Source: Eledone cirrhosa (lineage: Eukaryota). Taken from it: a stretch of DNA of 47,889 bases. Below the pieces are notes generated by a model, which saw only the letters and a program-made list of their open reading frames with translations, had not been told where the DNA came from and did no database searches. Shown piece after piece: positions 2,557 to 46,042 of the stretch. The position numbers and the translations under genes were made by a program. The stretch covers positions 1 to 47,889 of the forward strand of contig CAXHJY010001047.1 in NCBI GenBank assembly GCA_964016885.1, in the 5' to 3' direction. Position 1 is the stretch's first letter, and each line of letters opens with the position of its first letter.

Positions 2557-2760
2557 ATAGGAACGAGTAGGACCCCGACGGCTGAGCTCAAGCCGTTTCG
2601 ACGGCTAATTCTGGACTAAATCAGTCCAGAATTAGCCGTCGAAACGGTTTGAGCTCAGCCGTCGGGGTCCTACTCGTTCCTATTACCCACTCTACTACCC
2701 TAAGTATTGAGTACTTTGGTGCGTTATGGTCCACCTGGTTCCTTACCACATTTCCTTCGT

Positions 2761-2762
<2 letters not shown>
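2557..2762 (+). mobile_element. Fold-back mini-element family E, copy 1, carrying the 3' half of a hammerhead
   Basis: 61-bp arms 2557-2617 and 2623-2683, loop AAATC, unpaired tail 2684-2762; GAAA(2641)-CGG..CCG-TC(2662)-GGGG; second copy at 17106-17312. Confidence 0.8.
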
Positions 2763-2812
<50 letters not shown>

Positions 2813-2845
2813 TATATATATATATATATATATATATACTATATA

Positions 2846-2876
<31 letters not shown>

Positions 2877-3530
2877 CTATATATACTATATATATATATA
2901 TATATATACTATATATACTATATATATACTATATATATATATACTATATATACTATATATATATATATACTATATATACTATATATATATATATACTATA
3001 TATACTATATATACTATATATATAGTATATATACTATATATATATATATACTATATATATATATATATACTATATATATATATATACTATATATATATAT
3101 ATACTATATATATATATAATATATATATATATATATAATATACTATATATATATATATAATATATATATATATATATAATATATATATATATATACTATA
3201 TATATATATACTATATATTTTATATATATACTATATATATATATACATATATACTATACTATATATATATATACTATACATATATATATATATACTATAT
3301 ATATATATACTATACATATATATATATATACTATATATATATATACTATATATATATACTATATATATATATACTATACATATATATATATATATACTAT
3401 ATATACATATATACTATACTATATATATATATACTATATATATATACTATATATATATATACTATATATATATACTATATATATATACTATATATATATA
3501 TATATATATATATACTATATATATCTATAT
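2763..3530. repeat. (TA)n microsatellite with TAC interruptions
   Basis: Direct reading. Confidence 0.97.
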
Positions 3531-4976: not shown

Positions 4977-7716
<2,740 letters not shown>

Positions 7717-7904
7717 ATAGATAATTTAATATATCAACTAACATAAGCGCACAGATGCACGCCCCATGCTAGCAAATACACAGGTTATGTCATAGTACCT
7801 AGGTGGTTCAATGCAGGAGAATGCAGAAACAATAATATAAAGGACGGAAAATAAGAAAATATTTAAAAAAAAAATTTTTTTTTAAATTTTTTACTTAAAT
7901 TTTC

Positions 7905-7988
7905 ACTCCAACTAATTAGTGTTCTGCAATGGGATAAAGACAGTTACGTAATCCAAACTGTCGAGAATTCATTGCGTCATCAGGGAGT
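7905..7988 (-). ncRNA. Type I hammerhead ribozyme, GAAA core disrupted by a 1-nt insertion
   Basis: Reverse complement of 9315-9395 but reads GAACA at the GAAA position. Confidence 0.6.
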
Positions 7989-8465
7989 CTATTCTCAGTT
8001 AAGTCTCCAGGCAATGCGCGGACACTGGCGGCTCATATAAAAATAATAATAATTCGGTAGATCGAACAGCTTGCGAGGACTGGATTCTATGTACCGAAAT
8101 TCTCACTGCTTCAAGTCAAATGGCCGATTCTAAAGAATCAATCACGTGACACAGAGGCTAGTTAGAAGGAATGGGATGGTAAGATGACTGACGCCTACTA
8201 ACACCCCCAAAAAAATGTTTATAGAAGTGGTTTTTGGCAAGTTTGCTCGACAAATCAGTGATTTGGAGATAAATATAGATAATTTAATATATCAACTAAC
8301 ATAAGCGCACAGATGCACGCCCATGCTAGCAAATACACAGGTTATGTCATAGTACCTAGGTGGTTCAATGCAGGATGAGAATGCAGAACAATAATATAAA
8401 GGACGTAAAATAAGAAAATATTTTTAAAAAAAAATTTTTTTAATTTTTTACTTACTTAAATTTTC

Positions 8466-8548
8466 ACTCCAACTAATTAGTTTCTGCCAATGGGATAAAG
8501 ACAGTTACGTAATCCAACTGTCGAGAATTCATTGCGTCATCAGGGAGT
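8466..8548 (-). ncRNA. Type I hammerhead ribozyme
   Basis: Reverse complement of the 9315-9395 motif with intact CUGAUGA and GAAA. Confidence 0.85.
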
Positions 8549-9314
8549 CTATTCTCAGTTAAGTCTCCAGGCAATGCGCGGACACTGGCGGCTCATATAA
8601 AAATAATAATAATTCGGTAGATCGAACAGCTTGCGAGGACTGGATTCTATGTACCGAAATTCTCACTGCTTCAAGTCAAATGGCCGATTCTAAAGAATCA
8701 ATCACGTGACACAGAGGCTAGTTAGAAGGAATGGGATGGTAAGATGACTGACGCCCTACTAACACCCCCAAAAAAAATTCTCGACAGTTGGATTACGTAA
8801 CTGTCTTTATCCCATTGCAGAAACTAATTAGTTGGAGTGAAAATTTAAGTAAGTAAAAAATTTAAAAAAAATTTTTTTTAAAAATATTTTCTTATTTTAC
8901 GTCCTTTATATTATTGTTCTGCATTCTCCTGCATTGAACCACCTAGGTACTATGACATAACCTGTGTATTTGCTAGCATGGGCGTGCATCTGTGCGCTTA
9001 TGTTAGTTGATATATTAAATTATCTATATTTATCTCCAAATCACTGATTTGTCGAGCAAACTTGCCAAAACCACTTCTATAAAAAATTTTTTGGGGGTGT
9101 TAGTAGGGCGTCAGTCATCTTACCATCCCATTCCTTCTAACTAGCCTCTGTGTCACGTGATTGATTCTTTAGAATCCGGCCATTTGACTTGAAGCAGTGA
9201 GAATTTCGGTACATAGAATCCAGTCCTCGCAAGCTGTTCGATCTACCGAATTATTATTATTTTTATATGAGCCGCCAGTGTCCGCGCATTGCCTGGAGAC
9301 TTAACTGAGAATAG

Positions 9315-9395
9315 ACTCCCTGATGACGCAATGAATTCTCGACAGTTGATTACGTAACTGTCTTTATCCCATTGCAGAAACTAATTAGTTGGAGT
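9315..9395 (+). ncRNA. Type I hammerhead ribozyme
   Basis: ACTCC-CTGATGA-cGCAATG..GACAGTT..AACTGTC..CATTGCa-GAAA-CTAATTAG-TT-GGAGT; stems I and II pair, stem III palindromic, GUU triplet. Confidence 0.88.
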
Positions 9396-9467
9396 GAAAA
9401 TTTAAGTAAGTAAAAAATTTAAAAAAAATTTTTTTTTTAAATATTTTCTTATTTTACGTCCTTTATA

Positions 9468-10054: not shown

Positions 10055-11926
10055 TTTGCAAAAAAAACACAAAATCCACTGGCTCTACTGTTGGCCCTCT
10101 AATTGATGAAAATGGCACTCTTCAAGACAATGCTAAAACCATGGGTGAGATACTGCAGAAACAATACTGCTCTGTTTTCAGCAATCCTGATATGGCCGAT
10201 CTGGGCTGTATCGGCGATGTTACTCCCCATTACACCTTATCGGACATAACGTTTGGCGCCCCTGATGTCTTGGCGGCAATAAAGGAAATCAAGCATAATT
10301 CAGCAGTAGGTCCCGATAGGTTCCCTGCTTGTGTCTTGAAGGCGTGTCAACACCAACTTGCATCTCCTCTTGCCAATCTGTGGCGGAACTCACTGGATGC
10401 TGGATATGTGCCAGAAAACCTTCTATACCAGTCTGTTGTCCCAGTTTTCAAAAAGGGAAACAAATCCCTTGCCGTGAATTACCGTCAATCTCACTCACCT
10501 CTCATATCATTAAGGTATTTGAGAGAGTGGTGAGATCGCGAATGACCCACTTCCTTGAGAGTAACAATATGCTGAACTCCAACCAGCATGGATTCCGTAA
10601 TGGAAGGGATTGCCTGACGCAGCTACTGCATCACTTTGATGACATTTTGAGAGCCTTGGGAGAGGGTTCCAACACTGATGTTATCTACCTTGATTTCAGC
10701 AAGGCCTTTGACAGGGTTGATCATAACATTCTACTGAGAAAGCTGTCCAATATTGGTGTCACTGGAAAGCTGCTGCGGTGGTTCAAGAGCTTCCTGTCAA
10801 ACAGAATCCAACATGTTGTAGTTGAGGGAGTCAAATCCAGCCCAGCCAAAGTCAGTAGTGGTGTCCCACAAGGCACTGTGTTGGGCCCACTTCTCTTCAT
10901 CATCTATATTAATGACATCACTGACATCATCAAACACAGCAACATTAAAATTTTCGCTGATGATTCCAAGCTCCAAAAGGTCATCAATGGCGTGGATGAC
11001 CGGATAAGCCTTCAGTCAGACCTACTGGCTGTTACCCAATGGGCGGAAAAGAACAACATGTTACTGAACGAAGACAAATTCGAACTGATCCACTTTGGAA
11101 AAGAGGATGCTCTGAAACTCCCGTACTCCCTTCCCTCCGGGGAAACTCTCGTGGCATCTAACAACATCAGAGACTTGGGAGTAACCGTGGACAGCAACAT
11201 AAGCTGGACCACGCATATAAGCAGCAAAGTTGACATGGCCCGCAGAATGTGTTCCTGGATCCTCAGAACCTTCCAGTCGAGAGATTCCCGCACCATTATC
11301 CTTCTCTTCTCTACTTTTGCCCGACCACACCTTGAATACTGTTGTCCACTGTGGTCTCCCCACACGAAACAAAGTATCATGAAACTTGAAGCTCCTCAAA
11401 AGGCAATCACGAAAAAGATAGATGGCATGCCAGGACCTTGACTACTGGGGTCGACTAGAAAACCTGAAACTTTACTCACTCCAACGTCGCCGTGAGCGTT
11501 ATATTATCTGCATGATGTGGAAAATGTTCCATCATCACTGCCCAAATGATGTTGGCATCGCCTTCAAGATACACCCAAGGCTTGGGCCCCGTGCTATCCG
11601 TCCCATTCAAAAATCTAAATCGCAACTCATAACAACAATACGGCACAATTATTTCACCTCAATCGGCCCTGCTCTCTTCAACATCACACCAGGACACGTC
11701 AAAACAGAAACTGACCACACAAAATTCAAGAAGTCTTTGGACAAATTCCTCCAAGTAATCCCGGAGAAACCACCCACACCCGGATATGTCTCCGCAAACA
11801 GTAATTCTTTTCTCGAATGGGCCATGGTGCCCAAATCCTGAATTGAAAGACTTCGCCAGGTGGTGCTATTAAGTTAGACATGGCCTGGGCCAATACTGGC
11901 CAAAACATTTCAAAGTTATTCAAAGT

Positions 11927-11928
<2 letters not shown>
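10055..11928 (+). mobile_element. CR1-like LINE, 5'-truncated (family 2, copy 1)
   Basis: RT domain plus C-terminus, 3' stem-loop GGCCA-atac-TGGCC, (TTCAAAGTTA)2 tail, TA flanks. Confidence 0.93.
10057..11841 (+). pseudogene. LINE ORF2 reverse transcriptase, frameshifted near 10485 and 11430
   Basis: SAVGPD, NYR(P)ISLTS, QHGFR, YLDFSKAFDRVDH, SGVPQGTVLGPLLF, FADDSKL, WSPH, RRRERY. Confidence 0.93.
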
Positions 11929-12752
<824 letters not shown>

Positions 12753-16900: not shown

Positions 16901-16973
16901 TTGGTACACACACACGCACACGCACACGCACACACACACACACATATATATATATATTTATATATATATATAT

Positions 16974-17033
16974 GAAAAGAGTCAGGACCCTGACGGTTGA
17001 GCACCGGCCCTTTCGACAGCTAGATCCGAACTC
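16974..17033 (-). mobile_element. Diverged 60-bp fragment related to family E (3' half of hammerhead)
   Basis: Minus strand TAGCTGTC-GAAA-..CCG-TC-AGGGTCCTGACTC aligns with TAGCCGTC-GAAA-..CCG-TC-GGGGTCCTACTC. Confidence 0.65.
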
Positions 17034-17105: not shown

Positions 17106-17108
<3 letters not shown>

Positions 17109-17312
17109 CGAAGGAAATGTGGTAAGGAACCAGATGGCCCATAACGCACCAAAGTACTCAATACTTAGGGTAGTAGAGTGGGTAATAGGAACGAGTAGAA
17201 CCCCGACGGCAGAGCTCAAGCCGTTTCGACGGCTAATTCTGGACTAATACTAGTCCAGAATTAGCCGTCGAAACGGCTTGAGCTCTGCCGTCGGGGTCCT
17301 ACTCGTTCCTAT
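17106..17312 (-). mobile_element. Fold-back mini-element family E, copy 2
   Basis: Tail 17106-17184; 62-bp arms 17185-17246 and 17251-17312, loop ATAC; near-identical to the reverse complement of 2557-2762. Confidence 0.8.
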
Positions 17313-17392: not shown

Positions 17393-17439
17393 TTACATAT
17401 ATATATATATTTACATATATATATATATATATATATATA

Positions 17440-18473
17440 TAACTTTGAATAACTTTGAAATGTTTTGGCCAGTATTGGCCCAGGCCATGTCTAACTTAAT
17501 AGCACCACCTGGCGAAGTCTTTCAATTCAGGATTTGGGCACCATGGCCCATTCGAGAAGAGAATTACTGTTTGCGGAGACATATCCGGGTGTGGGTGGTT
17601 TGTCCGGGATTACTTGGAGGAATTTGTCCAAAGACTTCTTGAATTTTGTGTGGTCAGTTTCTGTTTTGACGTGTCCTGGTGTGATGTTGAAGAGAGCAGG
17701 GCCGATTGAGGTGAAATAATTGTGCCGTAATTGTTGTTATGAGTTGCGATTTAGATTTTTGAATGGGACGGATAGCACGGGGCCCAAGCCTTGGGTGTAT
17801 CTTGAAGGCGATGCCAACATCATTTGGGCAGTGATGATGGAACATTTTCCACATCATGCAGATAATATAACGCTCACGGCGACGTTGGAGTGAGTAAAGT
17901 TTCAGGTTTTCCAATCGACCCCAGTAGTCAAGGTCTGACATGCCATCTATCTTTTTCGTGATTGCCCTTTGAGGAGCTTCAAGTTTCATGATACTTTGTT
18001 TCGTGTGGGGAGACCACAGTGGACAACAGTATTCAAGGTGTGGTCGGGCGAAAGTAGCGAAGAGAAGGATAATGGTGCGGGAATCTCTCGACTGGAAGGT
18101 TCTGAGGATCCAGGAACACATTCTGCGGGCCATGTCAACTTTGCTGCTTATATGCGTGGTCCAGCTTATGTTGCTGTCCACGGTTACTCCCAAGTCTCTG
18201 ATGTTGTTAGATGCAACGAGAGTTTCCCCGGAGGGAAGGGAGTACGGGAGTTTCAGAGCCTCCTCTTTTCCAAAGTGGATCAGTTCGAATTTGTCTTCGT
18301 TCAGTAACATGTTGTTCTTTTCTGCCCATTGGGTAACAGCCAGTAGTCTGACTGAAGGCTTATCTGGTCATCCACGCCATTGATGACCTTTTGGAGCTTG
18401 GAATCATCAGCGAAAATTTTAATGTTGCTGTGTTTGATGATGTCAGTGATGTCATTAATATAGATGATGAAGA
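17440..18473 (-). mobile_element. CR1-like LINE family 2, copy 2 (shorter 5'-truncated)
   Basis: Near-identical reverse complement of ~10893-11928, same 3' tail, different indels. Confidence 0.93.
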
Positions 18474-18498
18474 TATATATATATACATATATATATAC

Positions 18499-18910: not shown

Positions 18911-18976
18911 ATTTATATTATTATATATATATATATATAATATAAGATCAAAAGATGGTTAAAGGAGTTCAATATA

Positions 18977-19043
18977 TTTTATTATGCGCATTTCAAAAAC
19001 AAACATCATCAAACAATAATATTTGTGTTTTCATCAGATAAAA
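18977..19043 (-). ncRNA. Type I hammerhead ribozyme (inverted arm)
   Basis: Reverse complement of 19174-19240. Confidence 0.85.
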
Positions 19044-19173
19044 CAGGAGAACATGATATGAAGGCTAAAAAAAAACACTTGTTGATAGTGCAGTTTTAAA
19101 TCAACATATATGTTGATTTAAAACTGCACTATCAACAAGTGTTTTTTTTTAGCCTTCATATCATGTTCTCCTG

Positions 19174-19240
19174 TTTTATCTGATGAAAACACAAATATTA
19201 TTGTTTGATGATGTTTGTTTTTGAAATGCGCATAATAAAA
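19174..19240 (+). ncRNA. Type I hammerhead ribozyme
   Basis: TTTTAT-CTGATGA-AAACACAAAT..ATGTTTGTTTTT-GAAA-TGCGCA-TA-ATAAAA; palindromic stem III, AUA triplet. Confidence 0.87.
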
Positions 19241-19361
19241 TATATTGAACTCCTTTAACCATCTTTTGATCTTATATTATGCATACTCCAGTCCCACAAA
19301 CTGTAGAGTGCTTCTTATCCGATATCTGCATTGCTTTATTGTACTACAATAAAACTCACCT

Positions 19362-19413
<52 letters not shown>

Positions 19414-20047: not shown

Positions 20048-20078
<31 letters not shown>

Positions 20079-20083
<5 letters not shown>

Positions 20084-23000
20084 GACCATGCTGTAAAATG
20101 GAGGGGTAGAGAGGGCCCTTGAGTCTAGTAAGACATCCTCTCTAGTGCTGGTGGCACAAATAAAAGCACCCAGTCCATGCTGTAAAGTGGCGCTGGTGTT
20201 AGGAAGGGCATCCAACCAGTGTATCAATGCCAAAAAGCTTATCAGCACAGCAACAAAACAGCATAGAAAAATATGAAGACGTCGCATCTCAGAGTTGCAA
20301 CACTTAATGTTGGCACTCTCAGAGGTAGATCTGCTGAAATAGCGGAGATGCTGGAGAGAAGGCAGGTGGATGTGTGCTGCGTGCAAGAGGTGAGATGGAG
20401 AGGTGCCTCTGCGAGACTAGTCGTAGGCAAGCGTCTTAGCTATAAGCTATTCTGGGTAGGTAAGGATGATGGGTTAGGGGGAGTAGGCATTTTCCTGGCT
20501 GAGAAATGGATCAATAAGACAATAGAGGTAGTTCGAGTTAGTAATCGAATAATTAAGCTTAGATTAGTTGTAGGTAGGAGACTGCTGACAATCATCTCGG
20601 TCTATGCTCCCCAAGCAGGCCTAGGCAAAGATGAGAAAGACTGCTTTTATGAGCAACTTTTGCAAACAACCACAATGACAGAGGACGGAGACATCGTTAT
20701 GCTAGCAGGAGACTTCAATGGTCATGTTGGACGACTCCAGGATGGTTACACTGGGGTACATGGTGGCACGGTTACGGTTCAAGAAATGAAGAAGGAGTGA
20801 GACTTCTTGAATTTTGTGATGCAAGTACATTGACTATTTGCAACACAAACTTCCAGAAACCTGCCAATCACCTAATAACCTACAAATCTGGTGAGCACAT
20901 AAGCCACATTGACTTCCTGCTAGTTAGGCAGCGGACAGGCAGATAGTGTCTAATACCAAGGCATACCCTGGGGAAGAATGTACCCCACAGCATAGGTTAG
21001 TTGTTAGTGATATCTCAGTAAGCAAGAGATGGAATGAGACATATAGGAAGGTGTGGAGAAGAAAGGTCTGGAAGCTAAAAGACCTTTCACTAAAATTCAA
21101 ATTTAGGAAAGCCCTTCAAGATGTATATGACGAAAAAGAAGACGATTTAGAGACGTATAACATAGATAATAACTGGAAGTTCTTACGTGACAACTTGCTG
21201 AAGGCTACTGATGAAACCTGTGGCTGGAGCAGAGCTCCAACCAGACAGAGAGTGACCTGGTGGTGGAACAGCAGTGTAGATAGGCTATTAGAGACAAAAG
21301 ACTAGCATGGAAGGCTTGGAATAAGGGTGGGAGTAGGGAAGAATATACAGCCACTAAGAGAGAAGCTAGACGTCAGGTATACTTAGCACGCAGGGAGGCA
21401 GAGAGTAGGAGGTTTGCCAATGTTCTGCGACGGGAAGATCAGAGGCGTGCGGTGTTCCACATTGCAAGGCAGTGTGTCAATGCAAATCAGGATATTGTTG
21501 GTGATAAATGTGTCCGGGATGATGCCGGTGTACTTAGTGTCACGAATGACCAGAAAAAGGAGGCCTGGAAATGTCATTATGAGAGACTGATGAATGTGGA
21601 GAACGAATGGGAGAGAGAGAAATACCCTTGGTAGATCCGACAGAGGGACCAGCTATTGAGATTGACGAATATAGGGTCCAAGAGGCGATTAGGAAATGAA
21701 AAATGGTAAGGCGGCCGGACCATCGGGAATAGTTGCTGAGATGCTGAAGGCATCAGGGGACGTAGGCACTAAACTGGTTGCACGCATAATCAATCAGGCT
21801 ATATATGGTGGTGTCATACCCAAAGACTGGTGCAGCAGTATTCTCATAAATTGCTACAAAGGTAAAGGGGATGCGTTGGGGAGGAGCAATTATAGGGGTA
21901 TAAAACTGATAGATCAGGTTATGAAAGTGGCAGAAAGGATTTTAGCACAACTAATTAGAGAAAGGGTCAAACTAGATGAGATGCAGTTTGGTTTTGTGCC
22001 TGGGAAGAGTACAAACAGATGCCCTCTTCTTGGTGAGACAAATGCAAGAGAGGTTCTTAGAGAAGAATAAGCCACTATACTTAGCCTTTGTTGACCTAGA
22101 GAAGGCCTTTGATAGGGTACCCCGATCTGTCATCTGGTGGTCCCTAAGGAAGCTGGGTGTTGAGGAATGGCTTGTAAGGACAGTGCAAACTTTGTACAAA
22201 GGTACTCTCAGTAAAGTCAGTAGGAATGGAGTTTAGTGAGGAATTCCAGATACAAGTAGGAGTACATCAGGGTTCGGTCCTCAGCCCGCTCTTGATCATT
22301 ATAGTCCTCCAAGCCATAACAGAGGAGTTTAAGACTGGCTGTCCATGGGAACTTCTCTATGCTGACGATCTGGCTCTTATGGCAGAATCAGTAGAGGAGC
22401 TAGAGAATAAATTCCGGCTATGGAAACAGCAGTTGGAAGCAAGAGGACTGAGAGTAAATCTAGCTAAGACAAAAGTGTTGATGAGTAGAAAAGAGGACAA
22501 AACCCTGATTCCGTCAGGGAAATGGCCATGTTCGATATGCAGAAAAGGAACTGGCATAAATTCTATAAAATGCACACAATGTAGGTCCTGGGTACACAAG
22601 AGATGTAGCGGATAGCAGGCAAACTAACAGGTAGGGAGAAATATGTATGCAGTAGATGTACAGGGAAATTAGACAGTAGAAGTCGCACTGATAGACACAT
22701 TTTTCAAATGCGAGAGGGCGCTATAGAAGTGGTGGATAGCTTCCGGTACCTAGGAGATCAGATTAGCATGGGAGGAGGGTGTTCCGAGGCCATAGTATCT
22801 AGAATAAGGACGGGTTGGAAGAAGTTTAGGGAGCTGCTTCCTCTGTTGACGAAGAAGGGTTTCTCCCTGCGTACGAAAGGCCGGTTGTATGATGCCTGTG
22901 TGAGGAGCGCGATGCTGCATGGTAGTGAGACATGGGCAGCTACCGCAGAAGATATGCGACGGCTGGAGAGAAATGAGGCAAGCATGCTCCGTTGGATGTG

Positions 23001-23353
23001 CAGTGTAAATGTGCGTGAACGACCCAGCATAAATGTGTTGAGAGAGAAACTGTGTCTGAGAGGGATAGAATGTAGTGTACGGAGAGGAGACTGAGGTGGT
23101 ATGGACATGTGATGCGCATGGAGGATGACCGATGGGTGAAGAAGTGCCAGGAAATGCCAGTTGAAGGAAGACGTGGTAGAGGTAGACCACGAAAACATGG
23201 GCGGAGGTGGTGAGAACAGACCTCAGATCATTGAAGCTCACGGTGGAGATGACGAGGGACCGTCACGAGTGGAGAGATGCTGTGCTGAATAAGACCCGTC
23301 CCACCCTTGCAAGCAGGGAAAAGCGGACGTAAAATGATGATGATGATGATGAT
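20079..23353 (+). mobile_element. RTE-clade LINE, near full length
   Basis: Short 5' UTR, single APE-RT reading frame, (TGA)n 3' tail running into TA; 5' boundary approximate. Confidence 0.93.
20273..23332 (+). pseudogene. APE endonuclease / reverse transcriptase polyprotein with PHD-like finger, many frameshifts
   Basis: LRVATLNVGTL, VQEVRW, SVYAPQ, GDFNGHVG; GKAAGPSG, QFGF, FVDLEKAFDRVP, GVHQGSVLSPLL, LYADDL; CSIC/CTQC/HKRC/CSRC; RLRWYGHVMR. Confidence 0.92.
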
Positions 23354-23935
<582 letters not shown>

Positions 23936-23966
23936 AGATCAAAAGATGGTTAAAGGAGTTCATATA

Positions 23967-24033
23967 TTTTATTATGCGCATTTCAAAAACAAACATCATC
24001 AAGCAATAGTATTTGTGTTTTCATCAGATAAAA
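23967..24033 (-). ncRNA. Type I hammerhead ribozyme (inverted arm)
   Basis: TTTTATTATGCGCATTTC..TCATCAGATAAAA on +. Confidence 0.85.
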
Positions 24034-24165
24034 CAGGACAACATGATATGAAGGCTAAAAAAACACTTGTTGATAGTGCAGTTTTAAATCAACATATCTG
24101 ATATGTTGATTTAAAACTGCACTATCAACAAGTGTTTTTTTTAGCCTTCATATCATGTTCTCCTG

Positions 24166-24232
24166 TTTTATCTGATGAAAACAAAAATATTATTGCTTGA
24201 TGATGTTTGTTTTTGAAATGCGCATAATAAAA
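24166..24232 (+). ncRNA. Type I hammerhead ribozyme
   Basis: CTGATGA 24172, GAAA 24215, TGCGCA-TA, stem I TTTTAT/ATAAAA. Confidence 0.87.
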
Positions 24233-24356
24233 TATATGGAACTCCTTTAACCATCTTTTGATCTTATATTATGCATACTCCAGTCCCACAAACTGTAGAG
24301 TGCTTCTTATCCGATATCTGCATTGCTTTATTGTACTACAATAAAACTCACCTCCT

Positions 24357-26728
<2,372 letters not shown>

Positions 26729-27020
26729 AAAACAAATAACGAAACGAAATTAAATTTCGTTTCGTTTGTAACTCACTTTTGTATGACTGACGCTTAAACA
26801 ATTAAGTCAAGAATGTACATCCACATATGTATACTGAAATACTAGTATGCATATGAATACACACACTTGTACATATGTAGATGTTCCGAGTTTTTCACTG
26901 GACACTTTACTGTGAGTGTCCAGCTATTCTGTATGTAAACACACAGACAAACCGGTTTTTAGAGTCATACTGGTTTTCGGGGGAAACACCTTTCCTCTAT
27001 TCTCCAGAAAGCCAGACAGG

Positions 27021-27065
27021 AATATTGGACTAGTTTCGATGTTGTTACATCTCATCAGCAATATT
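27021..27065 (-). ncRNA. Minimal type I hammerhead ribozyme
   Basis: Minus strand AATATTG-CTGATGA-GATGT-aaca-ACATC-GAAA-CTAG-TC-CAATATT; canonical core, GUC triplet. Confidence 0.95.
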
Positions 27066-27485
27066 TACCTATCTTCCGGCTTTTCTAGAGAATCGTAAAA
27101 GCACATATCGTTATATGCTTTTTCTATTAAAATTAGTAGTGGGCAGACTAATTTGCATAGAGCGTGAGTACGTACCGGTTCAGCGGAGACGATAAAAACA
27201 AATAACGAAACGAAATTAAATTTCGTTTCGTTTGTAACTCACTATTGTATGACTGACGCTTAAACAATTATGACAAGAATGTACATCCACATATGTATAC
27301 TGAAATACTAGTATGCATATGAATACACACACGTGTACATATGTAGATGTACCGAGTTTTTCACTGGACACTTTACTGTGAGTGTCCAGCTATTCTGTAT
27401 GTAAACACACAGACAAACCGGTTTTTAGAGTCATACTGGTTTTCGAGGAAACACCTTTTCTCTATTCTCCAGAAAGCCAGACAGG

Positions 27486-27530
27486 AATATTGGACTAGTT
27501 TCGATGTTGTTACATCTCATCAGCAATATT
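27486..27530 (-). ncRNA. Minimal type I hammerhead ribozyme
   Basis: Identical motif one unit (465 bp) away. Confidence 0.95.
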
Positions 27531-27971
27531 CACCTATCTTCCGGCCTTTCTAGAGAATCGTAAAAGCACATATCGTTATATGCTTTTTCTATGAAAATTA
27601 GAAGTGGGCAGACTAATTTGCATAGAGCGTGAGTACGTACCGGTTCAGCGAAGACGATAAAAACAAATAACGAAACGAAATTAAATTTCGTTTCGTTTGT
27701 CACTCACTTTTGTATGACTGACGCTTAAACAATTAAGTCAAGAATGTACATCCACATTTCTGGAGAATAGAGGAAAGGTGTTTCCTCGAAAACAAGTATG
27801 ACTCTAAAAACCGGTTTGTCTGTGTGTTTACATACAGAATAGCTGGACACTCACAGTAAAGTGTCCAGTGAAAAACTCGGTACATCTACATATGTACACG
27901 TGTGTGTATTCATATGCATACTAGTATTTCAGTATACATATGTGGATGTACATTCTTGACTTAATTGTTTA

Positions 27972-27986
27972 TATATATATATATTT

Positions 27987-31674: not shown

Positions 31675-31679
<5 letters not shown>

Positions 31680-33018
31680 GAAATATAAGAATCAAAGAGC
31701 TGTTCAAAACATTATTGTGCTTACAGCTGTTTCCTCCAAACCGAGGTTTGGATTCTTCGGAGCAATTTATTAATGCATGGACAGTTATATGACCTCCTTT
31801 TCAGCCGAGAGACATACCGATACATATTCAAACATTGATACATATTCAAACATTGTGGGTCAACATTCATTACAGAATTTAGAGTGGCAGTACACACTTC
31901 GAGATTACATTTATATTAAGAGGTACAATCAAAAATCAAAAATACAGGTTAAAATACAACATGAAGATAAGCGGTTATATAGTGCAAATGTTATATGTGT
32001 GGCACGCATGTGCGTCTTGTTTATATAGTGTGGCAGAGAGATATGTGTGGTAGAGGCACTTAGGTAGGTAAACAAGAGTGTTAGGTTGGTAGATCTGGTG
32101 GCATATTCTTTATATGATTGAAGTCTGTGTGTGGAGAAATATTATAAGCATTAAAAATAGTGCAAGCATTAAAAGTGTTAAAAGTATTGGAGATGCACAG
32201 CGAAGGGATGTCAAGTATTTCATGTACTTCGGCATTTTCATGGTCAGGGGAGTGTATTTACATAATCCACGACAATGCAGTTAGAGATCGTAGTCTGGTG
32301 TTCATTAGTTCAATACAGGAGGCTGTTACGTTTCGAGAAACGCCATTGAATACCACCCGGAAGTGTGTGTGTGGCTAAGTGGAGTTAATGCATGCGGGGA
32401 GGTAACTCTGGGGTTTCTATACCTAGCTATTAAAATGTGTCCCAATATAGACCCTAATTTCTATGGTGATGCGCATCCTCCAAGAGAAATTTTTAAAGCA
32501 TAAAGTGTATTAACTATAGAGTAGTTTAATTAAGTTATGCTGAAGGTGATCATATTATTATGGTGGATTAACCCATCGTAAGGTGCCACAAATGGAGATT
32601 ATAGATGATGAGCGAGGATTCTAAATTAATGATCTCTGTGGTTGTAGTCTACTCATAGGACCAGGCGCGGTGATTGCAGGATTGCTTCAGGACCCAATGA
32701 TCTCTGGTAAGATCTGGGTCATCGCTTGCTACATTGGATGTCGAAAGATAATCATCCCCAGGCCGGCCAGAGGTCGATCCGCAGTCCTCGCGACCCCTCT
32801 CTGACCGTCAGATCATCCATATATGTACAACCCGCACGGCAGTTGCAATGCATTCACTCACTGCGCTCAGCAGCCCGGTCCAACTGCTCAACAGCGTTAC
32901 TAGATTAAATCATTTTTCATCTGTCTAAGGAAGGTGTTTCCTCTGCACAACACTATCCAACCGATCAATTCATGCTCAAATTACCCTTAGAGCGGTGTAG
33001 TGCCGTTCAAGTGGGTGG
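31675..33018 (-). repeat. Inverted copy of 35452-36795
   Basis: End coordinates sum identically (68470); mirrored small ORFs in the track; only scattered substitutions. Confidence 0.97.
31718..31764 (-). ncRNA. Hammerhead-like motif, CCGAAGA core variant (inverted arm)
   Basis: Reverse complement of 36706-36752. Confidence 0.7.
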
Positions 33019-35282
33019 CTTTAAAACCTTTAAAAGCCCCCCTCATAACGCTCTACTTAACTCCTTCGAAAATGACCTAGTTAAACTAGTTAAGAACATT
33101 AAATACAATAAGCACCATATTAGAAGCAACACCTTCTTAAACAAACTTAACACTTCTATTAATGGATTCAAAACTAGTAATAAAATTATTGTACACGCAG
33201 ATAAAACTAATAACATATACAGCATAGATTATAATACTTATAGAAAGTTTATATATAATGAACTACATAAAAGCTACAAAAAAACCACCTTGAAAAACTT
33301 AGAAGATATTAATGTAGAGGGTTATAATATAGTGTCTAAACTAGGACTGCAGAGGCATACACAACCTTTCACTCCGAACCCCCCTAGATTCTCTCTGAAG
33401 GACCATAAGGAGAACTTCATCAGCAACCCCACGATAAGATTTATCTGCCCTTCCAAGTCCGACATTGGTATTATCAGCAAGAAGATTTTGGATAAAATCA
33501 TCCCACAAATTAAACACAAGATACACCTTAAACAATGGGGAAATACGGGTGAAGTGATTGAATGGTTCAAGGATATCAAGAATAATAAGAACAAAAAATT
33601 TATTCAATTTGGTATCAATTCATACTACACCTCTATTTCCCCTATCCTATTAAATAAGGCACTTATCATGGCCATGAGCAATAGCGACCTGACTAGAGCC
33701 CAGGTTGATGTCATCCTTGCGGCCCGTAAAACCATAATCACCTTCGAGGACCAACTATGGACACGCAAGAATACGCACAACAACTTCGACATAACCATGG
33801 GATCTAGTGACTCGGCGCAGGTCACTGATTTGGTCGGCCTATACCTCCTTAATGAAATCCATAAGGACCTCCCTTACTTCAACGGGGTTTGTACCGCGAT
33901 GATGCACTTCTACTTATAGAATATAAAAAATTTAATATAGAAAGAACTAGAAAACAATTGCATAAGACATTCAAAAACTTTAACCTTAGTATCACCATGG
34001 ACAAAAACACTAAAAATGTTAACTTCCTAGACGCCACACTATACCTAGACTCAAAAATATATACACCTTTCCATAAGCCTAACGAGAAACTTATTTACGT
34101 AGATACCAAGTCTAATCACCCTAGATCAATATTAAACTCTACCTCTAAGGGGGTGTCCAATAGAATCTCTAGTCTGTCCTATGACGCAAACATATTTAGC
34201 AAAAACTCACAATATTACAATCAAGCATTAGCTAGCTCCGGCCATAATATAGAAATTGAGTTCCTACCTAAGAAAACACATAGCTACAACATCATCTCGC
34301 ACAACATGTCCATGAGGAAACCTAATAATAGGAATAGCAACCACAAGTACACCAAAGCGGAGGGTGCCACCGGAAGTAACCATTACCATGGAAACTACTG
34401 TGGGGCCTTAGGAGGAAGCAACATACCAAACACTAAAAGCAAAAATAGAAGAAGAAATAATACATTTTTCAACCCTCCTTTCAACCTAAATGTCTCCACC
34501 AGCATACATAGGGCTTTCTTCTCACTACTAGATAAAAACTTCCCTCTAGGACACAAGTACCACAAACTCTTAAACAAAAACACCATTAAAATCTCATACT
34601 CTACGACGCCTAACTTAGCATACCACATAGCTAGCAGCAATAATAGTAAAATTAGTTCTTACTTCCAACAAACAAAATCACAACGGGATGCAAACCCTCT
34701 AAATACCACTGTAGCAAGCAACCATAGCAACGGCAGTAACAATAGAAATAACACTAGTATAAGTAATAACACCAGGGTTGTCAACCCGAACGCCCAAAAT
34801 CCTATAGCTACCACACAGACTTCCGCACTGCATTATAACCAGCGGACTAACGCACAGGATAATTGTAACAGTAGAGCTGCCCTTTAGATAAAAAATGCCT
34901 AACCAAGGATATCATATACTCATGCACCGTCACGATTAACAACTCTTCAGAAACCTATGTAGGCTCCACTTCTAACTGCTTCAAAATCAGATATAATTCG
35001 CACATCCACTCGTTCAAAAAGCACAGCCTAGCAAACTCCACCTCACTTTCTAGCTACATACACTATCTAAAATCTAAAAATAAACCATACACACTCAAAT
35101 GGGAAGTGATAGGCAGCGCGACCTCGTACAAACCACCTAATAAATTTTGTAACCTCTGTATAGTAGAGACACACAATATTATCTTCTCCAACCGTAACCT
35201 ACTTAACAAAAAATCTGAGGTGTTTGCAACTTGCCAGCACCGCTTCAGACATTCCTTCCAAAACTTTAAGCCCAGTATATAG
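33017..35282 (+). pseudogene. PLE reverse transcriptase + GIY-YIG endonuclease, N-truncated, frameshifts near 33886 and 34875
   Basis: HADKTNN, RFICPSKS, FIQF(G)INSYYTSI, FDITMGSSDSAQV, LYRDD, NFLDATL; then CPLDKKCLTKDIIYSC..TYVGST..FKIRYNSH..CNLCIVE..LLNKKSE..CQH, stop 35280-35282 (hand translated). Confidence 0.92.
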
Positions 35283-36705
35283 CAATGTCGGACTGGAACC
35301 TAACACCACATCTAGCATCAAACACCAGAGACACACCTTATACTACATACCCAACACTAACTGATCTATTATAACACAAACAACGACACCCCTCTGGAAC
35401 CCTTCGCAGGGAGAATACCCATTTATACCTCTACGTCAGGTGTGACAACATCCACCCACTTGAACGGCACTACACCGCTCTAAGGGTAATTTGAGCATGA
35501 ATTGATCGGTTGGATAGTGTTGTGCAGAGGAAACACCTTCCTTAGACAGATGAAAAATGATTTAATCTAGTAACGCTGTTGAGCAGTAGGACCGGGCTGC
35601 TGAGCGCAGTGAGTGAATGCATTGCAACTGCCGTGCGGGTTGTACATATATGGATGATCTGACGGTCACAGGGGAGTCGCGAGGACTGCGGATCGACCTC
35701 TGGCCGGCCTGGGGATGATTATCTTTCGACATCCAATGTAGCAAGCGATGACCCAGATCTTACCAGAGATCATTGGGTCCTGAAGCAATCCTGCAATCAC
35801 CGCGCCTGGTCCTATGAGTAGACTACAACCACAGAGATCAATAATTTAGAATCCTCGCTCATCATCTATAATCTCCATTTGTGGCACCTTACGATGGGTT
35901 AATCCACCATAATAATATGATCACCTTCAGCATAACTTAATTAAACTACTCTATAGTTAATACACTTTATGCTTTAAAAATTTCTCTTGGAGGATGCGCA
36001 TCACCATAGAAATTAGGGTCTATATTGGGACACATTTTAATAGCTAGGTATAGAAACCCCAGAGTTACCTCCCCGCATGCATTAACTCCCCTTAGCCACA
36101 CACACACTTCCGGGTGGTATTCAATGGCGTTTCTCGAAACGTAACAGCCTCCTGTATTGAACTAATGAACACCAGACTACGATCTCTAACTGGATTGTCG
36201 TGGATTATGTAAATACACTCCCCTGACCATGAAAATGCCGAAGTACATGAAATACTTGACATTCCTTCGCTGTGCATCTCCAATACTTTTAACACTTTTA
36301 ATGCTTGCACTATTTTTAATGCTTATAATATTTCTCCACACACAGACTTCAATCATATAAAGAATATGCCACCAGATCTACCAACCTAACACTCTTGTTT
36401 ACCTACCTAAGTGCCTCTACCACACATATCTCTCTGCCACACTATATAAACAAGACGCACATGCGTGCCACACATATAACATTTGCACTATATAAGCGCT
36501 TATCTTCATGTTGTATTTTAACCTGTATTTTTGATTTTTGATTGTACCTCTTAATATAAATGTAATCTCGAAGTGTGTACTGCCACTCTAAATTCTGTAA
36601 TGAATGTTGACCCACAATGTTTGAATATGTATCAATGTTTGAATATGTATCGGTATGTCTCTCGGCTGAAAAGGAGGTCATATAACTGTCCATGCATTAA
36701 TAAAT

Positions 36706-36752
36706 TGCTCCGAAGAATCCAAACCTCGGTTTGGAGGAAACAGCTGTAAGCA
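36706..36752 (+). ncRNA. Type I hammerhead-like motif, CCGAAGA core variant
   Basis: TGCT-CCGAAGA-aTCCAAAC-ctcg-GTTTGGAg-GAAA-CAGCTG-TA-AGCA. Confidence 0.72.
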
Positions 36753-36956
36753 CAATAAAGTTTTGAACAGTTCTTTGATTCTTATATTTCATATAACTGC
36801 TCTGTAAATCATCTGATGTTTTTACATTGAGCTACTTAACTTACTGTTAATAAGGTAGTAATACATTACTGCCTACCACCATTTAGGGTTTATAAAAATA
36901 TATATAACTACAAAAGGTTTTTGTATTTGCATAACCATAAATAGTATACTTAATAC

Positions 36957-37031
<75 letters not shown>

Positions 37032-37222: not shown

Positions 37223-37245
37223 TATAAATATATATATAGTTATAT

Positions 37246-38391
37246 ATCAATATAGTTATAAGAACACCCCCACTAGAGAGCACTAACAAGTTTGATTTAG
37301 AACGTAGCACGATGGAAAGCATCCAGCAGATAGCTAATTCCATACACCAGAGTATAACTGTAACTATAGACTTCCCTTCCAAACACCCTAACAATAGACT
37401 ACCTGTATTAGACACAGAACTCTGGATTAACACTATAGACGAGAGAGCCCAAATTCTCCACTCACACTATGCTAAACCCATGGCCTCCAAATACCTGATA
37501 CTCAAAAACTCAGCAATGTCCAGTAGTGCTAAGTTTAATATTCTGATCGCAGATTTGGTACGAGTGATGAAGAATGTGTCCAGCATGTGCGACCCAACAG
37601 AAATGGAAGGACACATCCAACACTTCATCAACCGCATGCAGTTCTCTGGCTACAACCAAAGAGACAGAGTCAGAGTATACGAAGGAGCCATGGAAAAGTA
37701 TAAGACCCTCATAGAACTGGACATGAAAGGAATTTGCCCACTATACAGGAGCAAATCATGGAATAGCTTAGATAGGGCTAGACATAAGATAGGGAAGGCC
37801 ACATCATGGTACGACAACCAGAGATATCAGAGTGTCATGTTTGTGGACGCCACCCCTGGAGGGAAATTAGCTAACTAGTGTAGAAAGGCCCTGAGAAAGA
37901 CCCACTTAAAAATAAAGGTGGTAGAAAAGCCAGGAACCACCATAAAATCCCTGATCAGCAAAACCTACCCTTTTAAGAAAACCCACTGTACCAATAGGAA
38001 ATGTATCATATGTAAGGTGAACCCCCGGATAAACTGTAAAACTAGAAACGTAGTCTATAGCATAAGATGTACAGAGGGTACTTGCAGAAACACGACAACA
38101 ACATACATAGGTGAGACAGCTCGTAGCATAGGTGAAAGGATAGACCAACACTGGGGGGAACTAAAAGGACGAAAAAACGGGTCAGTACTATACGAACATG
38201 CTAGACAACAACATGACGGTAACATAGACAACATAGAAATTAGAATAATATCTAAACATAGGAATGACCCAGCAGATAGGCAAATCAGAGAGGCCAGTGA
38301 AATAGAAATTAGAACACCAAAGCTAAACAGAAAGAATGAGTGGAACAACAACAACACCCAAACAAACAACACTGACCTAAGAGAAGTATAA
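37246..38391 (+). pseudogene. PLE RT thumb + GIY-YIG endonuclease with in-frame TAG at 37876-37878
   Basis: LPVLDTELW, HYAKPM, MQFSGY, FVDATPGG; same frame continues KVVEKPG..CTNRKCIIC..NVVYSIRC..TYIGETARS..ER..QH..RQIREA..LN. Confidence 0.9.
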
Positions 38392-38918
38392 ATAAATAAG
38401 TAAATTAAATTAAATAAATAAAATAAGATAAATAAATACATACACAAGCACATAAACACACACTAGTCACCCAGCAGACACAACACTATACACACTAGTC
38501 ACACATCACACATAACACTATACACACACGAAAACGCATGCGCAAAGAAGACAAAATAAAATAAGATAAACAAACAAGCAAATAAATAAATAAATATATA
38601 GACAGACTGAACAAAAAAAAATGGCGTAGACATACAACACAACAGGAGGAACAATGAATATAACACCACTGACGATGTTGCAGATGTGCAACGAAAGATT
38701 TATGTAAATTATGAAAACTATATATATATGTGTTTGTCTATATTGTATCTGTATTATTTTTGACCGCCGGTCAGTCAATGGCAACATTGAGGACCGAGTA
38801 AGTTAGATCGCAGATATATATATATAAAAGACAGCGAGAAGCGAAATCCAACCAAACAGTGAGTGTGTTCTGTTATTAATTCTGGCAATATTACGCAAAT
38901 ATGACCCTCCCCAAATAT

Positions 38919-38925
<7 letters not shown>
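37246..38925 (+). mobile_element. Penelope-like element (non-Naiad type, clade not assigned), 5'-truncated just after the RT YVDD motif
   Basis: RT thumb plus GIY-YIG plus ~530-nt 3' region between TA tracts. Confidence 0.88.
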
Positions 38926-41970: not shown

Positions 41971-42096
41971 GTTATATTTAAAATTGTTGGGTTACAACTA
42001 GTAAATATTTATAACTGATATAAAAGCACTCGACAAATATTTGGAGTATATTTACAATATTAAATAAATGGAAAACTATATTTATAAAACCATATT

Positions 42097-42162
42097 TATT
42101 TCATTATATATATTTCGGGGATATCATATTAGCAATATGCTATGCCTTCATCAGACAAAATA
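42097..42162 (-). ncRNA. Type I hammerhead ribozyme
   Basis: Reverse complement of 45247-45312. Confidence 0.8.
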
Positions 42163-42513
42163 CAATATAAACAGTTTTATAGATAAATATATTCGACATT
42201 CCGTAATAAACATCGACTTCATTTGAAGAGGTTTACGCTAGCAGTGAAAATACAGAGAGAAAGAAAGAGAGAAAAAAAAAGGGAGAAAAAAAGAAAGAAA
42301 GACAAAACGAAGAAAAGGAAGAAAAAGAAGAAAAAGAAAAGAAGAAATGCATGGAACAAAATAGAGAGATGGAAAAATAGATAAAGCGAAGAGCTTCATG
42401 TAAAGAAACAGAAAGAGATATATATATATAGAGAGAGAGGAAATAGAGATATATATATATATAGAAAATTAGGTAGTGGGAGGTCATTTTGAGTAAGTGT
42501 ATCAATGATACAT

Positions 42514-42544
<31 letters not shown>

Positions 42545-43130
42545 GCTCAAGTATTAATGTAAGGGAGAGATATAGAGAGAGAAAAAAAAAATTTAAAAAT
42601 AGCCAGACATATTCGAGGCGTAGAAAACCCTATGTTTTAATGTATTAGTATTTATAAAACTTACACTATATTGTAAATATCAGTATTCCTGAATGAAACA
42701 AGTATCCATAATGTGTGAAAATTCATTATCTTATGTTTAGTTTTAAAAAATTCATATGTTTATGTGACAGCTACAAACATCAATGTGAATCCAACTGATT
42801 CACTCTGCAAACTCTATGTTACGGAAAACATTCTCAATGTGGTATAAAAATTTGAGCGTATTATTATTCTTGCGATTACTCTACAAGATTATCTATCAAG
42901 CAGAAATAGAGAGCAGATTTCAATATACCAATCAAAAATATATATTATATTATAAACAAAACTAAAAATAAAAAGATAATGATAATAATAAGTAAAAATA
43001 TAGAATAGAAAACTAAAAAATATATTACGAAAGAATATTACATAATAAAAATATTGCATATTAAAAATACTACGTATTAAAAATATTACGTATTAAAAAT
43101 TTACATATTAAAGATATTAAAAATATTAAA

Positions 43131-43161
<31 letters not shown>

Positions 43162-43536
43162 TAAACCACAAAGAACAACCCTTCAAAGTTAATTGACAAT
43201 ATATTGTCAAGTTCATTACAAGACAAAGCCAAAAATTATCTATCAAATCACATCTAGCAAAGAACATCTCAAAAAGATTATGATGTCCAATTATGTCTAC
43301 ATATGTTCCTATATTTAATATAGAAAGTTTATCTAGTGTAAGGTTAATTCAAAAAATTTGGAGCATCGGCTTTTAGGGTAGCTTAATTTTTCATGAGGAA
43401 TGTTTAGATAAAAATAAAAATAAAAATAAATAAAATAAAATAAACAATAAAAAGAGTAAAAAGAGGGAATCAAAGATTTAGGAATCAAAAAATTTATCGG
43501 CTAGTTCTCATATAAATATAAATCAAACTAAATATA

Positions 43537-43848
43537 CTACATTTTAAATTTAAATGTATATTTAAACGTTGAGTTTAATCTATGTTTGCAACAACTGAAT
43601 AAATTTGTCCGTAGGTTAAGGGAATTTTTAGATTTTAGTATAAAGAATATCTCCTCTGCGCAGAGGTCACATGTCTCAGAGGATGAATTAAAAGGAATCC
43701 CTCTTGAGACTATATTCCAAGCCGTCGAATATCTAACGTTATCTAGCTTAAGTTGCCAGAGTACGCCTGATAGTGCCGTTGAAGATTTTTTATTTGGATC
43801 TGTGAAATAATTCTTGTGGTTATTATAGCGAAGTTTAAATTCCGTCGA
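43537..43848 (-). pseudogene. C-terminal half of PLE GIY-YIG endonuclease (103 aa, no start, absent from ORF track)
   Basis: STEFKLRYNNHKNYF..TALSGVLWQLK..WNIV..CDLCAEE..LNLRTNLFSCCKHR; aligns with FKIRYNSH..CNLC..LLNKKSE..CQHR at ~34980-35250. Confidence 0.9.
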
Positions 43849-44140
43849 TTTATTTTTATTTTTATCTAAACATTCCTCATGAAAAATTAAGCTACCCTAA
43901 AAGCCGATGCTCCAAATTTTTTGAATTAACCTTACACTAGATAAACTTCTATATTAAATATAGGAACATATGTAGACATAATTGGACATCATAATCTTTT
44001 TGAGATGTTCTTTGCTAGATGTGATTTGATAGATAATTTTTGGCTTTGTCTTGTAATGAACTTGACAATATATTGTCAATTAACTTTGAAGGGTTGTTCT
44101 TTGTGGTTTATTTTTATTTTTATTTTTATTTTTATTTTTA

Positions 44141-44171
<31 letters not shown>

Positions 44172-44853
44172 TTTATTCTTTTAGTATTGTAGTATTCTAT
44201 AATATTTTTTATTTTTTATTTTTTATTTTTATTTTATTTTTAATATTTTTAATATCTTTAATATGTAAATTTTTAATACGTAATATTTTTTAATACGTAG
44301 TATTTTTAATATGCAATATTTTTATTATGTAATATTCTTTCGTAATATATTTTTTTAGTTTTCTATTCTATATTTTTACTTATTATTATCATTATTGTTA
44401 TCTTTTTATTTTTAGTTTTGTTTATAATATAATATATATTTTTGATTGGTATATTGAAATCTGCTCTCTATTTCTGCTTGATAGATAATCTTGTAGAGTG
44501 ATCGCAAGAATAATAATACGCTCAAATTTTTATACCACATTGAGAATGTTTTCCGGTAATTTAGAGTTTGCAGAGTGAATCAGTTGGATTCACATTGATG
44601 TTTGTAGCTGTCACATAAACATATGAATTTTTTAAAACTAAACATAAGATAATGAATTTTCACACATTATGGATACTTGTTTCATTCGGGAATACTGATA
44701 TTTACAATATAGTGTAAGTTTTATAAATACTAATACATTAAAACATAGGGTTTTCTACGCCTCGAATATGTCTGGCTATTTTTAAATTTTTTTTTTCTCT
44801 CTCTATATCTCTCTATATCTCTCTATATATCTCCCTTACATTAATACTTGAGC

Positions 44854-44884
<31 letters not shown>

Positions 44885-45246
44885 ATGTATCATTGATACA
44901 CTTACTCAAAATGACCTCCCACTACCTAATTTTCTATATATATATATGTATCTATCTCTATTTCCTCTCTCTCTATATATATATATCTCTTTCTGTTTCT
45001 TTACATGAAGCTCTTCGCTTTATCTATTTTTCCATCTCTCTATTTTGTTCCATGCATTTCTTCTTTTTCTTTTTCTTCTTTTTCTTCCTTTTCTTCGTTT
45101 TGTCTTTCTTTCTTTTTTCTCCCTTTTTTTTTCTTTTCTCTCTTTCTTTCTCTCTGTATTTTCACTGCTAGCGTAAACCTCTTCAAATGAAGTCGATGTT
45201 TATTACGGTATGTCGAATATATTCATCTATAAAACTGTTTATATTG

Positions 45247-45312
45247 TATTTTGTCTGATGAAGGCATAGCATATTGTTAATATGATATCCCCGAAATATA
45301 TATAATGAAATA
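45247..45312 (+). ncRNA. Type I hammerhead ribozyme (inverted arm)
   Basis: TATTTTGT-CTGATGA-aGGCATAG-CATATT..AATATG-ATATCCCc-GAAA-TATATA-TA-ATGAAATA; stem I has two G-U pairs. Confidence 0.8.
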
Positions 45313-45370
45313 AATATGGTTTTATAAATATAGTTTTCCATTTATTTAATATTGTATATATAAATATATA

Positions 45371-46006: not shown

Positions 46007-46042
46007 ATATATAAATATATATATATATATAAATATATATAT

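Follow-up and report, generated by a model that had tools for sequence, protein, structure and literature searches.

Hammerhead-bearing fold-backs of Eledone cirrhosa as insertions of a Hydra-type Penelope-like element, probably with two primed cDNAs running off at a putative capped RNA start

Penelope-like elements (PLEs) of the Hydra clade are marked, in the accessible text of Craig et al. 2021 (PMC8557442), by the motifs RW[K/R], DKT, CxCx5C, CxxC and CxH in the absence of GxKF/Y, and an insertion architecture in which an inverted copy is combined with a one-sided tail is already published there for EN+ PLEs. The hammerhead ribozymes of PLEs include a U3-A8 variant, and a multimeric or circular template has been proposed for PLE hammerheads (accessible portion of PMC4209133), while transcription of Penelope starts at an internal promoter in the pseudo-LTR (likewise in the accessible portion of PMC2377424). 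In vitro, a lizard PLE uses two RT start sites with nicking and extension of both strands, and its ribozyme mutants showed no effect on insertion, with no reads ending at the cut (PMC11167929). For the L1 and SVA retroelements, untemplated G residues at 5′ ends have been interpreted as the copied cap in the part of PMC4859970 available.

In the (TA)n-rich, 3.0-Gb genome of Eledone cirrhosa, a hairpin containing part of a hammerhead had been noticed from the letters of a single contig, which is analysed here in its entirety as the window (CAXHJY010001047.1, 47,889 nucleotides, forward strand). The observation of the hairpin made in this sequence-only reading is confirmed. Unit coordinates refer throughout to a 3,531-bp element unit derived from a tandem array (L186:4038-7568). 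The two copies of the main family are arranged as follows:

2200 to 2556, no strand: left flank, (TA)n-rich microsatellite target
2557 to 2621, minus strand: inverted tail-less arm, unit 249 back to 185, 95% identical to the unit over 65 nt (blastn)
2622 to 2622, no strand: single inserted base, C on the plus strand, read as G beside unit 185 in the orientation of the inverted arm
2623 to 2683, plus strand: sense arm, unit 189-249, comprising the 3′ strand of stem II, GAAA, the palindromic stem III and the 3′ strand of stem I
2684 to 2762, plus strand: one-sided tail of 79 nt, unit 250-328, equal to the spacing of the two fixed insertion ends
2763 to 3200, no strand: right flank, (TA)n-rich microsatellite target
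17106 to 17247, minus strand: second copy, tail (17106-17184) and sense arm (17185-17247, unit 249 to 187)
17248 to 17250, no strand: second copy, 3-nt junction insert
17251 to 17312, plus strand: second copy, inverted arm, unit 188-249

The sequence at 2557-2621 is the reverse complement of the arm beginning at 2623 with a single mismatch, at 2648, and a 140-nt segment is mirrored over its first 61 nt by this 65-nt arm and ends in the 79-nt tail, which has no counterpart and in the full element runs on into the ORF. The sense arm begins at the A of an initiator-like TTAGTC and, as had been described, carries the 3′ half of a hammerhead at 2641-2667 (GAAA at 2641-2644, stem III, and GTC/GGGG at 2661-2667; predicted cut after 2663), the 5′ half being replaced by the mirror copy. 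Both window copies carry only this 3′ half, and their loops differ as stated (AAATC in the first, ATAC in the second, which occupies 17106-17312 on the minus strand). The second copy harbors the CGGCAGAG variant in both arms; this part of the earlier description stands, but the variant had been taken to belong to the individual copy and is instead a subfamily character, also present in long copies (e.g. L174, L176, L182 and L032). The inserted base at 2622 is compatible with a copied cap, an origin that is ambiguous in this one copy since another subfamily carries a C at that place. A decayed older relative of the same family is found at 16972-17030, 75 nt from the second copy. An Rfam scan showed no hammerhead at the hairpin locus among the 150 listed of its 166 matches, and elsewhere in the window it returned weak HH9 matches (27006-27076 and 27471-27541) and microsatellite noise.

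The parent appears, on the motifs that assign it to its clade, to be an intact and recently multiplying Hydra-type PLE. A RT/GIY-YIG frame is located upstream in long copies; the ORF is a 784-aa open frame (717 aa from the first Met) in which a motif search identified YRDD at 348 and YIG at 606. It furthermore contains RWR at 37, a conservative variant of RWK, DKT at 117 in place of DKG, a CxCx5C linker at 572, CxxC at 670 and CxH at 698, and the motif search detected no GxK[FY] in the 784-aa ORF. The ORF matched no Pfam family, the RT and GIY-YIG assignments being made by motifs. Among 111 scored of 80,251 candidates in a protein search, none had stops over the query and many were 784-aa frames. 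In comparison with the Hydra clade, as described in the available text of Craig et al. 2021 (PMC8557442), the element shares the single RT + GIY-YIG frame with the same motif set, the (TA)n target, a hammerhead in the pseudo-LTR, and the combination of partial tandems, an inverted 5′-truncated copy and a one-sided tail. It differs in its 3.5-kb unit (generally <3 kb in the clade), in RWR where the clade has RWK, in a 79-nt tail (30-40 in the clade) and in a U3-A8 core with a long stem II; that text does not chart the turning points of inverted copies. The EN+ PLE insertion architecture of tandem, inverted copy and tail could be observed in 20 full-length loci. One tandem array, at L189:7271-9901, carries over 45 repeats of a 55-bp ORF segment (unit 1943-2000) at its 5′ end.

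The fold-back pattern has 16,993 matches genome-wide, while the reversed control has none, and as such the fold-back is not a product of chance. Two exact tail patterns have 8,525 and 5,040 genome-wide matches; arm ends were sampled by the tail alone (92 of the 8,525 and 92 of the 5,040, in genome order, within the first ~70 Mb of C1), yielding 167 short and 17 long copies, with a seeded mirror arm in 133 of the 167 short ones. Thirty loci chosen at first for a full 140-nt arm were left out of the counts, and the counts of 131 junctions omit L042 and one L286 match, which are mis-seeded or complex. TATA stands directly outside 120 of the 133 inverted arms, at about unit 249, and 139 of 184 tail ends read CCTTCGTTATA, with TA following. 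In full-length loci with both ends visible, the outer ends of the two arms are located at 249 and 328-332 respectively, and the long arm can have the one or the other; such opposite-arm ends are seen in L186-187, L193, L195, L198 and L201. Both outer-end sites (249 and 328) end in TA, matching the (TA)n target, and the fixed outer ends are the pattern expected of two internal RT start sites on two nicked strands.

The junctions between the arms comprise 45 overlaps, 26 blunt joints and 60 with inserts (n=131), and of the 29 inserts of at least 6 nt, 18 have a match of 6 nt or longer in element sequence close by and three are long A/T runs. Overlaps, blunt joints and inserts of this kind are expected of host end-joining. 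Foreign DNA, sometimes itself palindromic, has been captured at the inner junction of L054, L125, L129 and L289. The proposal that the fold-back is remade at each insertion is upheld by the diversity of these junctions: 114 of the 131 are distinct, some recur, in 5, 4, 3 and 3 copies, with the rest mostly unique, and the commonest recurs in two subfamilies. The same 114 distinct junctions exclude a single inherited, MITE-like loop, which had been named as the finding that would speak against remaking. A MITE or inherited fold-back was also rejected as a candidate on account of the varied junctions, the one-sided tail and the identity of the parent as a retroelement.

The inner ends are sharply bounded. 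None of the 300 arm ends of short copies lies upstream of unit 185, 210 are located at 185-196, 55 at 197-228, 19 at 229-232 and 16 beyond, which agrees with the claim that turning points cluster in stem II; the 17 long tail arms all reach 97 or further, and as such none ends at 98-184. This boundary, termed the wall, reads TTC/ATTT and TT/AGTC and is situated on the 3′ side of hammerhead loop II, where its first base is the first 3′ of the loop apex in the predicted fold, and hence a nuclease cut in the loop is compatible by position. Judged against the initiator consensus, the wall (TTCATTT/TTAGTC) is initiator-like, as is that of family F (TTTC/ATAT; see below), and a putative MTE-like match occurs at +18..+29. 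Hundreds of copies without a mirror arm also start at the wall. A splice acceptor at TTTAG was rejected as its cause, since the arms keep TTTAG.

The base naturally preceding A189 is T, and the bases inserted at junctions beside 189 are G in 16 of 24 cases, as against 19 of 61 at those positions from 190 to 232 where an extra G is observable (Fisher p 0.004); beside 229-232, 3 of 10 are G. Among copies fused directly to (TA)n, 48 G and 20 C precede A189, as against 11 G and 16 C before G190 (hand counts on the first 100 of 397; p 0.0009 and 0.01). The test at A189 is conservative, since one subfamily has a natural C there, and the G excess is partial, 8/24 and 20/68 not being G. A recurring GC (not GA) before GTCC, i.e. 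before G190, was noted in 12 of 100 rows as well as in L085, L088, L241, L252 and L265, and possibly arises where a modified first nucleotide beside the cap is misread.

Behavior at the wall depends on where an arm comes from. Of 68 first-pass arms that reach 189, 51 stop at 185-189 and 17 pass, in contrast to second-pass arms coming from beyond the tail, one unit downstream, of which 5/30 stop there and 25/30 read through (p 9e-8; 30 arms of 205 matches). Four of the five that stop are short products or jumps (L327/L328, L344 and L350). The mini-tandems L327/L328, L344 and L286 combine a copy that stops at the wall with a piece starting at unit 387-442, which is suggestive of template jumps, and the jumps from the wall to 442/387 (L327 and L344) fit a physical RNA end. 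Among full-length insertions, none of the 16 long arms whose inner end is visible terminates at 185-189, and a capped RNA alone is therefore insufficient for long copies; since the latter pass both walls, a multimeric or circular template would be needed.

A second family, family F, is represented in the window by two fold-backs:

18940 to 19366, plus strand: family F fold-back with a whole hammerhead in each arm, turning 70 nt upstream of CTGATGA
23931 to 24361, plus strand: second family F copy, both arms having one additional G (sense) at the wall

Its architecture is that of the main hairpin, with a complete canonical hammerhead in both arms. The family has 1,857 exact tail matches genome-wide, of which 30 loci were sampled along with the two window copies; from this small set L311, a long copy with a deletion, was dropped. 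The wall of family F (TTTC/ATATG) is located 70 nt upstream of the hammerhead core and not at a loop apex in the predicted fold, and 12 of 18 short copies start at -1..+5 relative to it; the mirror arm of L309 is an exception, passing the wall by about 20 nt.

Further fold-backs and retroelement fragments are found in the window. A related Hydra-type PLE at 31679-36959 (broken frame; 46% and 40% identical to the family at the protein level) has inverted arms of 1,344 nt and a one-sided tail, and a large fold-back of a distant relative at 41972-45353 has a CTGATGA..GAAA motif in each arm and an endonuclease region (43564-43842) with 36% identity. The region 26729-27972, a partial tandem with an inverted piece, harbors the weak HH9 matches mentioned above (27006-27076 and 27471-27541, minus strand). 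There are two more fold-back insertions, 45768-46011 and 7658-9411, one short with a tail of ~30 nt and the other a tandem plus inverted repeat. Pieces of another RT family occupy 37241-38922, which has a GIY-YIG-like end with a CTGACGA..GAAA motif downstream, and 46815-47889. LINE-like fragments lie in (TA)n at 5051-5695, 10057-11933, 17439-18478 and 20075-23356; the second and third of these have a common 3′ end, and the last ends in (TGA)n, presumably like RTE elements.

The pseudo-LTR sequence L186:4167-4290 takes, as its MFE structure, the form of a three-way type I hammerhead with three stems (z -0.17), with loop II predicted at unit 181-184, GAAA at 207 and the cut after 229. Unfolded copies with a full hammerhead do exist, as had been foreseen, but their 5′ half is not the expected GGACCCC-CTGANGA-GACGGC; in long copies it reads ACCCC-YTGANAA-G-NT-CGGCTA, with a long stem II. 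In a hand tally of the first 100 of 4,927 matches, the 5′ core of long copies was U3-A8 in 79, C3.A8 in 19, U3.G8 in two and C3-G8 in none (mostly UUGANAA), and CTGANGA is rare (7 arms by pattern search). The subfamily of the window copies has the C3.A8 mismatch in six of nine long copies; C3.A8 is often seen in long copies of this subfamily (L041, L053, L128, L135, L137, L143, L017 and L003), and L003 and L017, with no coding sequence in the stretch covered, may represent a non-autonomous derivative.

Between units 197 and 244, 18 of 90 arm ends fall at 229-231 (p 1e-5), a peak that may be read as a genomic hint of hammerhead cleavage in vivo at the predicted cut. Both arms end at 230 in 27 of 100 short-centre rows (19 with an insert and 8 blunt; hand count on the first 100 of 657 matches), and at 228 in one locus, which would suggest cleaved RNA as the template of both arms. 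Rows with both arms at 230 come more often from the young U3-A8 subfamily (19 vs 6 of 27), single arm ends at 229-231 do not (6/154 vs 12/146), and a link between the U3-A8 core and cleavage, looked for in both of these sets, was not found in them. About 41 of the 100 short-centre rows, or roughly 1-2% of fold-backs, are centred in the palindromic stem III, so that some junctions are structure- or deletion-guided; stem III, and not stem II, thus appears to shape a minority of fold-backs. Compared with the PLE hammerheads in the accessible portion of Cervera and de la Pena 2014 (PMC4209133), the present ribozyme has a stem III of 5-6 bp and a very long stem II, and the arm ends at the cut site constitute indirect in vivo evidence.

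Taken from sequence comparison, the hairpin is probably a Hydra-type PLE insertion in (TA)n produced by two-primer run-off at a putative capped start. Both cut DNA ends would prime RT at two fixed sites (249 and 328) in the element RNA, and both cDNAs would run to the likely capped 5′ end of this RNA before being joined head to head, presumably by host end-joining; the arm at 2557-2621 would be the cDNA primed at the internal site A. An internal Pol II promoter in the pseudo-LTR would initiate transcription at the wall, and the primary transcript would therefore begin with half a ribozyme. Stem II would have no priming role, its overlap with the turning points following from where transcription starts in the main family. 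A minority of templates (18/300 ends, at 229-231) would be 3′ products of hammerhead cleavage, and long and tandem copies would derive from a template without that 5′ end, either multimeric read-through or circular RNA.

In L1 twin priming, reportedly described by Ostertag and Kazazian in 2001, the second target strand primes a second cDNA. The second primer of L1, however, is said to be extended on another stretch of the RNA, further upstream, whereas in the present family one and the same segment would be copied into both arms from two fixed sites, and a tailed palindrome results. Second-strand priming is common to both, as is an untemplated G that marks a copied cap (PMC4859970 for the cap G, in its accessible part). 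The available text on Drosophila virilis Penelope (Schostak et al. 2008; PMC2377424) describes a TATA-less start in the pseudo-LTR, upstream of the tail repeat and ORF, as proposed here; that start was mapped on RNA, whereas the putative one of the present family would lie inside the ribozyme. In Anolis Poseidon PAc (Frangieh et al. 2024; PMC11167929), two internal RT starts just past the pseudo-LTR likewise define the tail, both DNA strands are cut and extended, and the target is AT-rich; the dimer predicted there is counted as a further likeness. PAc differs in that no reads were found at the ribozyme cut, the position at which genomic arm ends of the present family have a peak, and the study gives no account of inverted-arm joining or of cDNA end points. 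In the literature covered, mainly the main texts of open-access papers, no study was found that places the centres of PLE fold-backs at a capped start or at the ribozyme cut.

The sequence-only reading had proposed that the cDNA snaps back on the stem II hairpin and primes its own mirror, giving the hammerhead a second, structural role in integration. The position of the turning points inside stem II (210/300 at 185-196) and of the wall at the loop II apex accords with this, as do subfamily variants shared by both arms (e.g. unit 236 in the young set, 66/67 TT and 1 CC), but shared variants follow equally from a single RNA template, and the concordance of the arms, which over 120 copies have 7 minor variants in common as against 114 private differences, does not discriminate between priming on one RNA and snap-back. 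Snap-back would entail retention of the natural loop, a mirror no longer than the tail arm, a loop of at least 3 nt, a halt at every encounter with the structure and like behavior in other hammerhead families. The natural loop, by contrast, is kept in 0/167 copies, and in 18 near-symmetric junctions the spacer is <3 nt, which leaves no room for a priming loop. In 38 of 133 copies it is the tail-less arm that is longer, in 18 of them by at least 10 nt, and this arm can therefore not have been copied from the tail-bearing cDNA in its present form; the tail arm is longer in 35 and the two are within 2 nt in 60 (p 0.82), the asymmetry being alike in the older and young subfamilies, and later deletion at palindrome centres could add to it. 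Snap-back furthermore leaves the fixed stop of the mirror arm at 249 without explanation, 25/30 second-pass arms read through the same sequence, and family F folds 70 nt upstream of its ribozyme. Snap-back is thus very improbable, a structural role of the hammerhead in integration is likewise not supported, and the earlier interpretation as a whole is partly supported.

Two other explanations were considered. Two cDNAs could be primed as proposed, with the wall instead representing an uncapped, nuclease-cut RNA end in loop II or a polymerase-blocking protein; the wall does lie immediately 3′ of the loop apex, the excess of G is incomplete, and RTs can add untemplated bases at any end. However, G is enriched at 189 and not at other ends, including 229-232 (3/10), the context is initiator-like in two families, the wall of family F is off the loop apex in the predicted fold, and a protein block should stop second-pass arms too, which makes a wall of this type unlikely. 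Alternatively, a few short master copies may have spread as SINE- or MITE-like elements, their junctions being varied later by deletion at the palindrome centre. Some junctions do recur (5, 4, 3 and 3 copies), transcription would be possible from short copies in which the start site is retained, and the ~41/100 short-centre rows look like slippage in stem III. Against this, 114/131 junctions are distinct and the commonest is in both subfamilies, 60/131 gain bases with 18/29 inserts of at least 6 nt matching element sequence nearby, asymmetry is equally strong in the young subfamily, hundreds of copies without a mirror arm share the same start, and deletion adds no G; spread from master copies is accordingly improbable.

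Two-primer run-off at a putative capped start can be extended, tentatively and with some doubt, to three template RNAs of one PLE, namely a capped, a cleaved and a circular or multimeric RNA, with a dimeric RT copying one RNA from both cut ends. The capped transcript would start inside its own ribozyme, and its 5′ copy would therefore be born disarmed; a circle or multimer of cleaved RNA alone would yield full-length tandem copies. If true, this would account at once for inverted repeats, tail and tandems and for what the hammerhead does.

The locus adds scale and several independent controls to a known PLE architecture, and the family bears on the origin of PLE inverted repeats and the in vivo role of the hammerhead, both stated to be open in the available text of PMC8557442, PMC11167929 and PMC4209133. 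With thousands of young insertions and many intact, near-identical ORFs, it represents a resource in which the junctions give base-precise predictions for the start (185/189), priming (249 and 328) and cleavage (229/230). Such hairpins can be mistaken for MITEs or microRNA precursors but are one-off scars of retro-insertion.
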